From an uncultured archaeon (GTDB lineage: Archaea; Asgardarchaeota; Lokiarchaeia; Sigyniarchaeales; SOKP01): 64,000 bases of DNA. Under the pieces are notes generated by a model, which was not told where the DNA came from, did no database searches, and saw nothing but the letters and a program-made list of their open reading frames with translations. Shown here piece after piece: positions 1,399 to 32,412 of the stretch (positions are counted from its first letter, which is position 1; every line of letters starts with the position of its first letter). The stretch spans positions 192,001 to 256,000 of the forward strand of contig CAZALK010000001.1 in assembly GCA_964486045.1 (NCBI GenBank), written 5' to 3'. The position numbers and the translations under genes were made by a program.

Positions 1399-2622
1399 TT
1401 AAGTTTTCATTAAAGCCTTTGCGTTAGTCTGCCACTCGCTAACTTTCTTGGGGGAAACACCACTAATTCTAGAAGATAAATTCTCTGGATCTGCTTCGAG
1501 TAAAGCACTAACCGTAGTGATACCTTCTGTTTCTAGGTTTTCTGCCGTACCTTTTCCAATACCTTTTACAATTGTTAAAGGAATTTCTGAAGACTCTCCC
1601 TCAGATTCTTCATACAATGTTTCAACCTCAAAATCCAAACCTTTTTCGTCTGGGATTTCTACTTTCTCCGTGTCTGCGACTCCTGCCGAAGTTATGAAAA
1701 ATTCGCATTCGTTTGGAGGAAGGTCAGGGGCATCAACGATAACTGCTCTACGCTTTAATGAACTGTTAGAGGAAAATCCTTTGGTTTTAAACATTACCCG
1801 AAAATGACACCCGTGTGCCACAATATTACCCCCTATAGCATCATTACCGGAGAATATGCCCATCATCTTGGTCGCAACTTGATTAGTGAGTAATACAGCA
1901 CAATTATAAGTCTCAGCGATTCGTGAAAGGCCATGAATCATGCTATTTAAGACTCCTTGCCTTACCGCAAGTTTTCCTATGCCAACATATTCAGATCTTA
2001 AAAGAGCCATTAAGGAATCGACGATAATTAAACGTACTCCACGAGTTTTACACAACATCTCTGCTTTTTGGATCATTTGAGATTGATGGTCCGAAGAATA
2101 TATCCGGGCATGGTAAATCTGAGAAAGTACCGATTTAGGATCTAACCCGAATCGTTTCGCAATCCGCTTAATTTTTTCTTTAGAGAAGGTATTTTCAGTG
2201 TCGATATAGGCAATAGAACCATCCAAGCCCCCCTCTTTTTTCAGGAGTTGACATGTCACTGAAATTGTTGAAGCGAGTGCTGTTTTCCCTGACTTAAAAG
2301 GGCCATAAACTTCTGTAAGTTTGCCTGTTTGAAATCCTCCACCTAATATTTTATTAAGCTCTGCGGAACCCGTTGTAATATACTCAACATTTTCATCTAT
2401 CTTTTCCGCTGTAGTAAACTCCGTCATCCCTAATGCGTTTCGAGCGTTCCAAATTAACTTTTTCGCAGTTTTATCACCGAGTCCATCAATATTCGCAACT
2501 ATCATACCTGGAGACATCGCCAAAGCCTCAGCGTTACTAATACCATTTTCTTGTAAAAGTTTTATCTGACGGGCATTGATACCTTTTACTTTACTTAAAT
2601 CTGCCACTTTTTGTAACATCAC
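1399..2622 (-). CDS. radA: RadA/Rad51-family recombinase paralogue with additional C-terminal HhH domain
   Basis: N-terminal HhH, FTTA polymerisation motif, ITTGS..L..ILGGG, Walker A GPFKSGKT, YIDTENTF, LIIVDS, TNQV, IGGNIVAH, then a C-terminal VKGIGKGTAENL HhH. True start may be ATG 2619 or GTG 2607 (after AGGTGA). Confidence 0.9.
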   Translation of the reverse strand: MMLQKVADLSKVKGINARQIKLLQENGISNAEALAMSPGMIVANIDGLGDKTAKKLIWNARNALGMTEFTTAEKIDENVEYITTGSAELNKILGGGFQTGKLTEVYGPFKSGKTALASTISVTCQLLKKEGGLDGSIAYIDTENTFSKEKIKRIAKRFGLDPKSVLSQIYHARIYSSDHQSQMIQKAEMLCKTRGVRLIIVDSLMALLRSEYVGIGKLAVRQGVLNSMIHGLSRIAETYNCAVLLTNQVATKMMGIFSGNDAIGGNIVAHGCHFRVMFKTKGFSSNSSLKRRAVIVDAPDLPPNECEFFITSAGVADTEKVEIPDEKGLDFEVETLYEESEGESSEIPLTIVKGIGKGTAENLETEGITTVSALLEADPENLSSRISGVSPKKVSEWQTNAKALMKT

Positions 2623-2664
2623 CTACTTTATCTAATTAGGATTAACCTTAGATTATGACCGATC

Positions 2665-2679
2665 TATATAAAGAAAAAA
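2665..2679 (-). promoter_or_regulatory. T-tract/TATA promoter motif upstream of radA paralogue
   Basis: Sense strand TTTTTTCTTTATATA. Confidence 0.7.
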
Positions 2680-2884
2680 CAGAGATTAGAAAAAAGTAAT
2701 AATGCCAAACATCAGAAAAATAAGTTCCGGGGAATGGGAAAGAAAAAGTGTATCAATAAAAATTAGTCTTATTACTCTTTTCTAACATAAATAGATAAGG
2801 ATGGTACAAGTATAAAAATAAAAAATAAATTTTTGAATTATTTAATGTATCAAGATAATGGAAATAGCAATAAATTGAATTAAC

Positions 2885-3253
2885 CTACTTCTCGGACCAA
2901 AACTCCAATTCAAATCCATTTAAATCCAGTATTTTTAGGTTTTTACCCCAAGGTTGAATTTGTATTGTCTGTGTAATTTCTACGTTATTCTCTCTGAAAT
3001 GAGTGAAAAGTGATTCGAGATTGTCGACTTTCAGTAGAGGGTGAAAACCTAAAGGTTTTAAAGGTTGGTTTGCTTTTAGCAAGTTAAATCCTATCAAAGG
3101 ATTATGAGAATAATAAACATCTCCAAATAGACATTCCCCTTGATCATTTTTCAAATCACAACCTGATTTCCATCCTAAAATCTTTTTATACCATTCCATA
3201 GTTCTTTCAAGAGATACCACATGTAAAGTAATATCAATACTTTCAACTTTCAT
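2885..3253 (-). CDS. VOC/glyoxalase/bleomycin-resistance family protein
   Basis: LHVVSLERTMEWYKKILGW and QPWGKNLKILDLNGFELEF. Confidence 0.85.
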   Translation of the reverse strand: MKVESIDITLHVVSLERTMEWYKKILGWKSGCDLKNDQGECLFGDVYYSHNPLIGFNLLKANQPLKPLGFHPLLKVDNLESLFTHFRENNVEITQTIQIQPWGKNLKILDLNGFELEFWSEK

Positions 3254-29890: not shown

Positions 29891-29934
29891 GAATTACAGA
29901 ATTAGAATTTAACCTTTAAAATGGTGATAAAATT

Positions 29935-31029
29935 ATATTACAAGTAGAACAAACGTTAGTTGAGCAAAAACAACTAGAAATAGATGTAATTGAAAAATCA
30001 ACAGAAATTCTTAAGTATCTTCACATTGGAATAAGTTTACCCATCCTTCCTGAGTTTCATAAGTATATCCTAAACGATTTAGAAGCTTATAATGCAAAGG
30101 CTTTGGTTTTAAGGGAACATATGAACACTACTAAATTCAGAAAGATGACTGAGGATATTGTAGGAATTACCCTTGTATATGAAGATGGAAGTGATACTTT
30201 ATTTTTCGGGTTTTTTGGGGTTTACGATCATAATTCGGAGAATGTTGAATATTTAGCCGATGAGTTGATTGAATATGCGCGAAAGAATGGATATCATAAG
30301 ATTCGCGGTCCGATAAACGTTCCTACCGTAATCTATGGATGGGGTTTTATGGCAGAAGGGAGTTGTAAAGAGCCTTTTGTCGGTTGTCCATGGAATCCAC
30401 CAATCTATCAAAGAATTTTCGCTGAGAAAGGATTTGATGTGCTTTTCGAGGAAGACAGGTATAAGATGGTTGCATTAAAAATGAATCCCTACAAGCTGAA
30501 GCATAGAGACGGATCGTTTTATGACTTTTCTGACTATGAAATTGTAAATCCTGGTCCTGAAGGAATGTATGAATGTAAGGAAGATTTCATTCGTCTGCAT
30601 AAAGATTATATGCCTCTGTCAGCCAAAATTACCCCTAAAATCGAAAATAACTTTAAGAATTTAGTAGATTTCATATTTTTCTACGGGCATCATGATATGA
30701 TGTGGATGGTCTATCACAAACCTACAGACGAAGCTATTGCCTGCGGATATGTCATTCCAAATCCGTTCTCAAAAAGTAAGAAAAGAAAATGGGTGGGACA
30801 ATGGAACTCTCTAAGCTTTCACGATTGGGTTGTCCATCCGGATCATAGGAGATCGGGAATTGCTATGCTTATGTATGGTCATACTTCCCTTCAGCTGATG
30901 TCTCCAAAAGGATCTGCTGAGTGGGGAAGCTTTCCGGTCGGAGCTGATAATATCGCGAATGCAAAAATGGCCCAAAAAATGCTCGGGAAAAAGAATAGAA
31001 CACACCTAATACTGCAACTTGAATTTTAA
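29935..31029 (+). CDS. GNAT-family N-acyltransferase (YghO-like tandem GNAT)
   Basis: FFGFF, KIRGP, PWNPP.Y, VHPDHRRSGIA. Frame is open upstream of the ORF-track start (30103) back to the stop at 29917-19; GGTGAT SD precedes ATT 29932/ATA 29935. Confidence 0.7.
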   Translation: MLQVEQTLVEQKQLEIDVIEKSTEILKYLHIGISLPILPEFHKYILNDLEAYNAKALVLREHMNTTKFRKMTEDIVGITLVYEDGSDTLFFGFFGVYDHNSENVEYLADELIEYARKNGYHKIRGPINVPTVIYGWGFMAEGSCKEPFVGCPWNPPIYQRIFAEKGFDVLFEEDRYKMVALKMNPYKLKHRDGSFYDFSDYEIVNPGPEGMYECKEDFIRLHKDYMPLSAKITPKIENNFKNLVDFIFFYGHHDMMWMVYHKPTDEAIACGYVIPNPFSKSKKRKWVGQWNSLSFHDWVVHPDHRRSGIAMLMYGHTSLQLMSPKGSAEWGSFPVGADNIANAKMAQKMLGKKNRTHLILQLEF

Positions 31030-31229
31030 ATCCTTATTTTTTTCTTTTTTATTTTGGTTTCTAATTAGTTGAATTATTTACTAACTGTTAACTAACTACT
31101 AACTTTTTTATTGTAATTTTAAGTTGTATTTGTCAATAAACGAGTAACTAACTATTAACCATATAAAATAGGTATAAATATCTCAAGTATAAAAAAAAGA
31201 AAATAAAAAAAGAAAGAAGATTTTTGGAT

Positions 31230-32285
31230 TTACATCATTAATTCTATTTCTACCGGTGTTTGTCTCACAGTAGAAAATGCCGAGAACAACCTTGTCTCAG
31301 CACCAGACACTACAGAATTAATAATGTGAGATACACTTTCTATACTATCGATAACTCCAATGCTTTGCCCTAAGAGAACCGCCCCTTCCTCAATATCTCC
31401 GTTATAAGACAGCTCATAAAACTTCATTTCATCCACCACGGAAGCCATCTTTTTCTCATCTTGCATTTTCTCTTCTTTGCTTGATACTAACGTATGACGT
31501 CGTGTAAAACTATTCTTAAGCACTCGAATTGGACCAAATAAACCGGTAACTAACTCCGTATCAGCCGATCCTGAATTCACCGCAATATTTTTAATATTCT
31601 CATGAAATTCACATTCTTTTGAGGTTATAAATCGAGAACCCATTGCGATTGCTCCCGCCCCTAATGATAGGGCTGAAGCGAGACCATCTCCATTTGCAAA
31701 TCCTCCACACGCAATTATTGGTATATCAGGAAGTTTTTTTCGAATCTCTTGCAATAGCACGAGAGTACTCACTTTTTCATAGGATTGATGACCACCACCT
31801 TCGATACCTGTTACTACTAGACCATCGACACCCATACCGGCACATTTCTCTGCAAAGCGTATATTTGGTACCACATGAAAATGTTTTATCTGAGAGGTTT
31901 CTCTAAGTTTATCATAGTACCTATTAAACATTAAGCGTGGTGATCCTGCACTTGTCAGTACATATACACACTGTTCTCTGATCCTCTGGTTTGCCATAAT
32001 AAATTGTGGAATTTTCCTACATAATTTAATAGCATCAGGTTGTAATCGAGCTGTCCGAATATTAAATCCAAACGGTTTATTGGTATGCTCAACCACATAT
32101 TCCATGTTTTTTTTCATTTCTTCTAAGCTGTTCTTCCCTAGAAGGTTAGTATGACTTAAAACACCAAGCCCTCCTGCTTCAGAAACTGCAACACTTAATT
32201 TTGTGGTGTAAAAAGGTCCCATAGGAGCACTTAAGATAGGATGCTGAACTCCTAACATCTTAGTTATTTCTGTTTCTATTCCCAT
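31230..32285 (-). CDS. Nitronate monooxygenase / FabK-like flavoenzyme
   Basis: PILSAPM, VSEAGGLGVL, GIEGGGH, IIACGG, AIAMGSRF, GQSIG; promoter motif T8-C-TTTAAATA at 32344-32360. Confidence 0.88.
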   Translation of the reverse strand: MGIETEITKMLGVQHPILSAPMGPFYTTKLSVAVSEAGGLGVLSHTNLLGKNSLEEMKKNMEYVVEHTNKPFGFNIRTARLQPDAIKLCRKIPQFIMANQRIREQCVYVLTSAGSPRLMFNRYYDKLRETSQIKHFHVVPNIRFAEKCAGMGVDGLVVTGIEGGGHQSYEKVSTLVLLQEIRKKLPDIPIIACGGFANGDGLASALSLGAGAIAMGSRFITSKECEFHENIKNIAVNSGSADTELVTGLFGPIRVLKNSFTRRHTLVSSKEEKMQDEKKMASVVDEMKFYELSYNGDIEEGAVLLGQSIGVIDSIESVSHIINSVVSGAETRLFSAFSTVRQTPVEIELMM

Positions 32286-32412
32286 TATTTTATCACATTG
32301 TAATTTTAATTAAATGTTTGATAGAACGAATTAGGCAAATCCATATTTAAAGAAAAAAAATAAGTATAGAAATTTAAGAGAGTAAGATTTAAGATTATAA
32401 TAAAAAAAATAT

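Follow-up and report, generated by a model that had tools for sequence, protein, structure and literature searches.

Membrane and recombination genes with a shared T-rich core promoter in a Lokiarchaeial genome, and a divergent TFB as its candidate reader

Gene content of the locus

The window analysed here is a stretch of 64,000 nucleotides (C1:192001-256000) of the 5.18-Mb genome, 31% G+C, of an uncultured Asgard archaeon whose near kin are found in the Promethearchaeia (Lokiarchaeia), e.g. Loki_b32 and Hel_238_bin13. Between window positions 1399 and 32360 it carries a cluster of recombination, membrane and surface protein genes together with a divergent transcription factor B (TFB), here called TFBL. 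All genes that a first-pass annotation had named in this region are present where it placed them, and the cluster extends beyond that span, with about 20 kb more upstream of the window. With a probability of roughly 45%, this is an ancient chromosomal Asgard cluster encoding a membrane-associated machine for handling DNA, equipped with a recombination kit of its own, which in Lokiarchaeia would be a regulon switched by a dedicated TFB. No description of the cluster or its promoter was found in the literature searched (full text, incomplete coverage). The new part is the regulatory layer: the promoter statistics, the TFB fold test, the covariation of helix and promoter, and the presence in the cultured strain MK-D1. 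The features are listed below in window positions (TM, transmembrane; HhH, helix-hairpin-helix), "motif" being the shared promoter element described in the next section.

1399..2619, minus: RadA2, Rad51 family (E 1e-69); the N-terminal domain, Walker A/B and catalytic Glu are intact, and an extra HhH is found at the C-terminus
2665..2679, minus: T6C-TATA promoter of radA2, 60 nt before the ATG, in 18/21 orthologues
3437..3817, minus: o126, small protein rich in Cys (Zn); motif copy of its own at 3839-3853, in 14/16 orthologues
3861..4583, minus: RadB-like / Rad51-paralogue ATPase at the end of the M50-o96-RadB unit, Walker A intact in 32/35 homologues
4576..4866, minus: o96, small one-TM membrane protein, middle of the M50-o96-RadB unit
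4929..5678, minus: M50B-like membrane zinc protease, HExxH and PSxxD kept
5700-5714 and 5782-5796, minus: two tandem motif copies upstream of the M50 protease
6175..7413, plus: TFBL, divergent full-length TFB with Zn ribbon, two cyclin folds, helix IKMSTIQ and an extra C-terminal domain ending KGPP; no motif upstream
8651..8665, plus: motif copy of SURF, 62 nt before the true ATG, in 25/26 orthologues within 2 mismatches
8713..11307, plus: SURF, large surface protein with N- and C-terminal TM helices and a prenyltransferase-like alpha/alpha toroid
11327..11341, plus: motif copy of o203, 38 nt before it, a leaderless position
11365..11976, plus: o203, conserved in relatives, heading the Hef2 unit
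11969..14137, plus: Hef2, Hef/FANCM-like SF2 helicase, no ERCC4 match at its C-terminus; the first GTG (12071) lies after the Q motif
14141..14659, plus: DUF1922-like Zn-ribbon protein, kept in the cluster across Asgard classes
14673..14903, minus: o76, small protein, motif at 14928-14942; its decayed second copy has a motif too, at 15125-15139
15192..15467, minus: o91, conserved small protein after hel308-2, seen in relatives
15482..18022, minus: Hel308-2, an SF2 helicase that has a SWIM-like Cys/His stretch inside it; motif at 18049-18063
20003..20017, plus: motif copy heading the membrane operon, in 17/20 orthologues
20045..22183, plus: HhH712, with HhH domain, acidic linker, Hjc-like region by eye and TM hairpin; DNA-binding part predicted cytoplasmic
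22185..22844, plus: m219, membrane protein with 3-4 TM helices, membrane operon
22841..23704, plus: m287, two C-terminal TM helices, membrane operon
23701..27492, plus: BIG, membrane-anchored pseudo-ATPase of 1263 amino acids with HerA/VirB4/TrwB fold, two TM hairpins, dead P-loop and helical C-terminal domains
27489..27848, plus: o119, last gene of the membrane operon
27879..27916, both strands: back-to-back motif pair; the plus copy (27902-27916) serves GNAT635, the minus copy (27879-27893) points antisense into o119/BIG
27938..29845, plus: GNAT635, GNAT-like, its C-terminal membrane domain being DUF998; retained in the clusters of Loki, MK-D1 among them
29876..31029, plus: motif (29876-29890) and GNAT302, an acetyltransferase-like gene whose start is probably upstream of 30103
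31230..32358, minus: nitronate-monooxygenase-family (NMO) gene with a perfect motif at 32344-32358

The recombination genes of the cluster are second copies in this genome. Other copies exist of radA (C7:30869 and C1:980580), hef (C1:351765, with an ERCC4-like tail, and C12:119992), hel308 (C10:155592) and fen1 (C1:384174), beside eight canonical TFBs and two full TATA-binding proteins (TBPs). The separate housekeeping radA, hef, hel308 and fen1 genes and the canonical tfb genes all lack the motif. Aligned with the housekeeping RadAs, RadA2 keeps the N-terminal domain, the polymerisation Phe, Walker A/B, the catalytic Glu and the L1/L2 residues, and it is 75-81% identical across the genus. It is worth noting that RadA2 is cut near residue ~262 in G074, G077, G101, G104, G110, G114, G117 and G063, which belong to several genera. 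In the M50-like protease, HExxH, set in a TM helix, is found in 35/35 homologues and the downstream Asp motif in 34/35, while the Pfam M50B match lies below the curated cut-off.

The 20 kb upstream of the window (C1:171001-191000) contains FEN1-2, a roadblock protein and a small GTPase, a NYN nuclease, an RNase H-like nuclease, Zn-ribbon genes, a PC4-like gene (by eye) and a 72-amino-acid two-TM protein, and most genes there have the motif. A CoiA-like nuclease gene in this part has none and is not counted in the regulon. A 191-amino-acid gene beside FEN1-2 was considered as a TFB core (e1-5504586), but the profile comparison gave 0.4% and does not support this. The NMO gene is probably a local recruit and was not seen in the clusters of relatives.

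Some details of the gene models deserve mention. The Hef2 frame has no ATG, GTG or TTG before the Q motif (11961-12071), and a run of seven A (11966-11972) joins the end of o203 to the Hef2 frame by one base, which could be a sequencing error, slippage or a rare start codon. A 56-nt direct repeat (14701-14756 and 15043-15098) marks the decayed second copy of o76, whose promoter is retained; relatives have two or three tandem copies. An unlisted open reading frame (ORF) of 48 amino acids at 18405-18551 (plus) encodes a CxxC-x17-CxxC Zn ribbon between hel308-2 and the membrane operon and has no motif. Behind the minus-strand motif at 27879-27893 there is no ORF. The same back-to-back pair occurs in at least 8 relatives, and an antisense RNA is possible.

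The promoter element and its candidate reader

The shared element is TTTTTTCTTTAWATA, a T-tract followed by a TATA core promoter, and it heads transcription units both at 1399-32360 and in the 20 kb upstream. Exact matches to TTTTTCTTTAWAW number 7 in the window against 0.43 expected, a count reached in 0/100 shuffles. Using a matrix trained on 222 sites from relatives, 17 matches (two overlapping) score at least 11 bits; all of these lie at 285-32358, and none are found at 32.4-64 kb. Distances from motif to ATG peak at 35-39 and 58-72 nt. The first peak places TTTAWATA about 22-30 nt before a leaderless ATG, which is the normal position of an archaeal TATA box, so the element is a core promoter with a T-rich TFB-recognition element (BRE). 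The bulk promoters of the genome, unlike this BRE, lean to A at -3, -4 and -6. The first-pass annotation had described one shared, non-canonical promoter: the sharing holds, as the exact matches show, while only the BRE part is non-canonical, the TATA box and its position being canonical, and the TFB gene itself has no motif.

In relatives the motif precedes the first genes of units, namely RadA2 (18/21 orthologues), HhH (17/20), Zn105 (14/15) and SURF (20/26 within one mismatch), and not the internal genes RadB (0/27) and m287 (0/14); it is conserved at orthologous promoters across genera. Genome-wide, 60 of ~4,500 genes score at least 13 bits, against 8 in a reversed control. Motif genes make up 16/48 of the genes in C1:171-225 kb and 44/4453 elsewhere (p 2e-19), and the housekeeping paralogues of the cluster genes score below 3 bits. 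The motif is therefore not common genome-wide, nor are the cluster copies of radA, hef and hel308 the only ones in the genome, two outcomes that the first-pass annotation had named as refuting its reading. Two further occurrences were observed. One is a motif-like site at C32:11072 (minus), ~210 nt upstream of a type I-E CRISPR-Cas-like operon (by eye). The other is a set of island-like regions dense in motif copies (C33, C8:79-99 kb and others), which hold ERCC4, LRR, WD40 and TPR genes and several uncharacterised genes.

TFBL has a confidently predicted fold, with a predicted local distance difference test score (pLDDT) of 83. Its best fold matches are TFIIB/TFB (E 1e-7), including the TFB of P. 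woesei (Z 17.1, root-mean-square deviation 3.6 A over 189 residues), and its profile matches the TFBs of its own genome at 99%. The four Cys of the N-terminal Zn ribbon are conserved, and both cyclin folds are present. A sequence-profile search of the PDB with TFBL gave only E 0.2, and a complex prediction of TBP with the TFBL core scored 0.01, which is uninformative either way. The canonical EVTIRNR-type BRE-recognition helix is not found in TFBL. Canonical TFBs, including all eight in this genome, have EVT/EAT(I/L/V)R at this place, while this TFBL has IKMSTIQ, and MS(T/S)I is typical of f1, the family of the genome studied here. In f2, the family of the cultured MK-D1 (G038 in the genome set used), the TFBLs of MK-D1, G036 and G049 have ASTVY in common. 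The promoters of MK-D1 read TTTYG-N-Y-W-TTAWA. A matrix built from them and applied to held-out f2 genomes finds 10/29 of the cluster genes and 2/94 of the genes that flank them (p 6e-6), best in G049. Across the genome the exact MK-D1 pattern by itself shows no enrichment (39 vs 34), and only the held-out positional test is counted. Helix and promoter thus covary, MSTIQ going with T6C, and ASTVY with TTTYG in MK-D1 and the held-out relative.

TFBL is present in 93/117 f1 genomes. The motif excess is 2.7x in f1 genomes with TFBL, 1.9x in f1 genomes where TFBL was not found and 0.7x outside f1, numbers that come from related and incomplete genomes and are not independent. The motif stands before 1/37 TFBL orthologues and is lacking at the gene in both f1 and f2, as would fit a master switch under separate control. 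Taken together, TFBL with TBP probably reads the T-rich BRE through its altered helix. The control by an alternative TFB that the first-pass annotation proposed is supported by fold, co-distribution and helix-promoter covariation, from which we infer the DNA binding by TFBL.

Two other explanations concern the promoter itself. That the motif is a mere by-product of AT-rich sequence, or of terminator T-tracts beside ordinary TATA boxes, is very improbable: the low G+C content and the many exact matches inside genes (among 129) would suit it, but the motif is specific in strand and position, is kept at orthologues through rearrangements, also stands between divergent genes and is absent from housekeeping paralogues. 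Less easily set aside, though still the less likely case, is a real regulon with another reader: the promoters would be weak and depend on an activator, a variant TBP or a TFB other than TFBL, or else a repressor would bind the T-tract. Other possible readers exist in the genome (eight canonical TFBs, two TBPs, one regulator with a TBP repeat), the motif excess persists where TFBL was not found (e.g. 15 vs 3 in G060), TFBL is unlinked to the cluster in G049, and the clusters of Freyarchaeum and H. aukensis have no clear TFBL. The covariation, moreover, rests on two related lineages. All of this weighs against TFBL. On the other side, every one of the canonical TFBs keeps the canonical helix. 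The tfbl gene is part of the cluster in f1 as well as in f2, and where the motif differs, so does the TFBL helix. In the established TFB-BRE geometry the TFB helix contacts DNA directly beside the TATA box, and it is exactly there that the element abuts it. The regulator with the TBP repeat is a 432-amino-acid protein at C5:52127-53425, Lrp/AsnC-like by eye, encoded near a canonical tfb.

Membrane module and distribution across Asgard archaea

The C-terminal half of BIG (residues ~600-965) has the HerA/VirB4/TrwB fold (E 7e-8), with tied scores for VirB4 (Z 20.6), TrwB (19.7) and HerA (19.6), and Z ~20 for DndH as well. Its P-loop, GxxxxRE or GGxxxER, lacks the lysine in all homologues aligned there, and Walker B is degenerate; BIG is therefore a pseudo-ATPase, presumably a scaffold and not a motor like CedB. 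Of the VirB4/HerA-like membrane protein in the first-pass annotation, the fold is retained and the active ATPase is lost, together with the Walker A lysine and the canonical Walker B. Sequence-profile searches of the PDB returned nothing for BIG or the 72-amino-acid protein, and for BIG, as for TFBL, the kinship emerged from the fold. The 72-amino-acid protein, which has the size of a pilin and was considered as a VirB2/CedA1-type one, is conserved, has the motif and shows no PDB sequence match to CedA1/TedC. HhH712, m287 and BIG carry TM hairpins, and so their large domains are probably cytoplasmic. The middle domain of HhH712 has no Atlas or library match, and its Hjc-like look is by eye only. 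The cluster membrane proteins have 1-5 predicted TM helices each.

A P-loop-intact DUF87 HerA of 654 amino acids occurs in eight copies in the genome, some with the motif. Satellite modules combine this intact HerA with TFBL copies, M50, the 72-amino-acid protein or a second BIG, and are possibly mobile elements that use or mimic the regulon. Examples are L073:4722-6683, L074:5157-7184 and six more places in the genome; genes for very large variable proteins often come next, one of these proteins having a LAGLIDADG domain.

MK-D1 carries a rearranged cluster (DSAG12_0214x-0217x) with TFBL (DSAG12_02155), SURF, RadA2 (QEE16310), Hel308-2, Hef2, FEN1-2 and BIG (DSAG12_02162), for which broad profiles were needed, and there too SURF follows TFBL. 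Older MK-D1 records contain near-identical cluster duplicates (DSAG12_0357x-0359x) that are not in the 4.32-Mb assembly, probably an assembly duplication. By broad profiles, and with matches of E 1e-9 to 1e-14 counted as ordinary HerA, BIG is found in 52/71 genomes of the Thorarchaeia family (well above the HerA background), in 6/6 of the Freyarchaeum family and in 24/27 Heimdallarchaeaceae. Several other families gave no clear match, including most genomes of four in the Heimdall class. In the seven lineages read (Freyarchaeum deiterrae, Thor, Baldr, Asgardarchaeum, Hel, Borrarchaeum and Heimdallarchaeum aukensis) BIG adjoins most of RadA2, Hel308-2, RadB-like and FEN1-2 as well as large surface proteins, so that the co-occurrence expected by the first-pass annotation is borne out in the Asgard loci compared. 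In profile comparison, the four-TM proteins of Thor and Freya gave no match to M50 and the surface proteins of these clusters none to SURF, and these counterparts are therefore analogous slots and not proven orthologues. Thorarchaeia and Borrarchaeum clusters add an XPD-like helicase, the Thor clusters being one long operon. Loki-type BIG genes on short contigs in a genome of another class (G302:C266 and C106) are probably misbinned.

The TFBL layer is established for Lokiarchaeia only. By eye, no shared promoter is evident in the Thor, Freya and Heimdall clusters, which are long operons, and the divergent TFBs near the Borr cluster and one Heimdall cluster are long branches. In a tree, all 19 cluster RadAs are found on the same side of one branch (support 67/90), arranged by host lineage, and neither a tyrosine integrase nor a called tRNA was found near the main cluster. 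These findings favour an old chromosomal system that has been lost many times. Near-complete genomes such as G032 and G006 lack the cluster or keep it in decayed form; G032 retains a truncated RadA2 and a BIG fragment, without TFBL.

A possible DNA-exchange state

The proposed mechanism starts from the T-rich BRE and TATA box that stand before about 55 genes of this genome. TFBL, made from a different promoter, would probably read this BRE with TBP, while canonical TFBs would prefer purine-rich BREs and leave the genes off. The surface protein, the small TM proteins, the M50 protease and the roadblock/GTPase switch could then set up or sense contact between cells. At the inner face of the membrane, BIG as an ATP-dead scaffold would hold DNA with HhH712, m219 and m287, motor activity coming from Hel308-2/Hef2 or, in some genomes, from a co-located P-loop-intact HerA. 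Finally, and tentatively, DNA of a neighbouring cell would be recombined into the chromosome by RadA2 with the RadB-like loader, and matured by Hel308-2, Hef2, FEN1-2 and ERCC4 nucleases. Adhesin-like surface proteins, a membrane DNA scaffold and a private recombination kit, dispensable and under a private promoter, fit an inducible contact-and-recombine state best, and DNA exchange between cells is the role that we favour, short of even odds.

Several observations weigh against this reading. The only universal membrane part with an ATPase fold, BIG, is inactive, and intact HerA is present in only 29/83 f1 genomes and was not found in MK-D1. At the level of TM prediction, no 6-7-TM channel like CedA/VirB6 was identified among the cluster membrane proteins, whose TM hairpins probably put the large domains in the cytoplasm, unlike ComEA. 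DprA was found in 0/5 genomes searched (control 11/14), and a single origin of RadA2 is only weakly indicated by the tree. The main rival, which we consider rather unlikely, keeps the same regulon inside the cell: under stress, in dormancy or in the cell cycle, the cell would fasten the copies of its own chromosome to the membrane for recombinational repair or segregation, with no DNA crossing. The predicted cytoplasmic side of the DNA-binding domains, the dead BIG and the failure to find a channel or DprA agree with it, and TFB paralogues do drive cell-cycle waves in Sulfolobus (10.64898/2026.09.06.749720). Against it, large extracellular proteins, including Ig-repeat adhesin-like ones, stay beside the recombination genes across classes, and a core cell-cycle function would hardly show losses like those in G032 and G006. 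It is improbable that the cluster is a conjugative-type element, domesticated or still mobile, with its own TFB, promoter class and recombination genes mainly serving its spread. In favour of this, TFBL, M50, BIG and intact HerA also occur as partial copies at scattered places with a patchy distribution, an integrase is found 2.5 kb from one fragment (C23), and the nearest Atlas look-alikes of TFBL include viral TFBs; but the main cluster, with no tyrosine integrase or called tRNA nearby, is mostly single copy, has shared flanks in several genomes and has a RadA2 that follows the host, though the satellites may differ.

By analogy, the Asgard system may work like the TFB3-Ced system or the ComX regulon, yet features that define them are not found here. 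The streptococcal ComX (sigma-X) regulon joins an alternative initiation factor and a private core promoter with a T-rich part to a co-regulated recombinase, an SF2 helicase and a membrane HhH protein. The same features are found in the Asgard cluster as gene content and promoter; what differs is the absence of DprA in the five genomes, the predicted cytoplasmic HhH and the lack of homology between the regulators. TFB3-Ups/Ced of Sulfolobales and Ted of Thermoproteales are alike in having a TFB paralogue tied to membrane genes, a membrane protein of the HerA/VirB4 fold, small proteins with two TM helices and a likely coupling to homologous recombination. However, TFB3 is truncated, its helix-turn-helix (HTH) replaced by a coiled coil, and radA is outside its control (PMC6101594), whereas TFBL is full-length with both cyclin folds and an HTH with altered helix. 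Ced requires a VirB4-type ATPase and a 6-7-TM CedA channel (PMC9905601). CedB is regarded as the motor, in contrast to the P-loop-dead BIG, no CedA/VirB6 homologue was identified here, and Ced lacks the private RadA/RadB/Hel308/Hef/FEN1 set of the Asgard cluster. The parallel drawn in the first-pass annotation is thus an analogy only.

The cyclic TFB2 regulon of Sulfolobus acidocaldarius, where promoters have a similar BRE and other spacing (10.64898/2026.09.06.749720), and the multiple haloarchaeal TFBs also show a TFB paralogue defining a programme through promoter architecture. Here, in contrast to TFB2, the BRE itself is T-rich, and TFBL is far more divergent and has an extra C-terminal domain. 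In the archaeal HerA-NurA-Mre11-Rad50 operon a HerA fold likewise sits beside recombination genes, but BIG is membrane-anchored and inactive, and NurA, Mre11 and Rad50 are not among the annotated cluster genes. RadA has been reported as duplicated in Heimdall, Njord and Gerd and, weakly, in Loki (PMC12722695), the accessible part of the paper giving no gene context or promoter. Its second RadA clade is only a candidate equivalent of RadA2, Heimdallarchaeum having four RadA-like genes.

DNA exchange and regulated developmental states in Asgard archaea bear on the origin of eukaryotic sex. The relevance to the ancestry of meiotic recombination that the first-pass annotation saw is weak: according to the same paper, Rad51 and DMC1 duplicated after eukaryotes parted from the sampled Asgards (PMC12722695), and a direct line to meiosis is therefore unsupported. 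More broadly, and doubtfully, a parasexual state of contact-dependent chromosomal DNA exchange with a dedicated recombinase set may date from near the Asgard common ancestor, and perhaps the lineage leading to eukaryotes had it too; in Loki, its sigma-like TFB would be an archaeal counterpart of the TFIIB/Brf split. If true, a TFB with a rewired helix reading a T-rich BRE would be an unusually clean archaeal case of sigma-like promoter selection. Gene set, promoter sequence and candidate master regulator are now named in a cultured organism, and with TFBL, BIG and RadA2 identified in MK-D1 the question of DNA exchange becomes experimentally testable.

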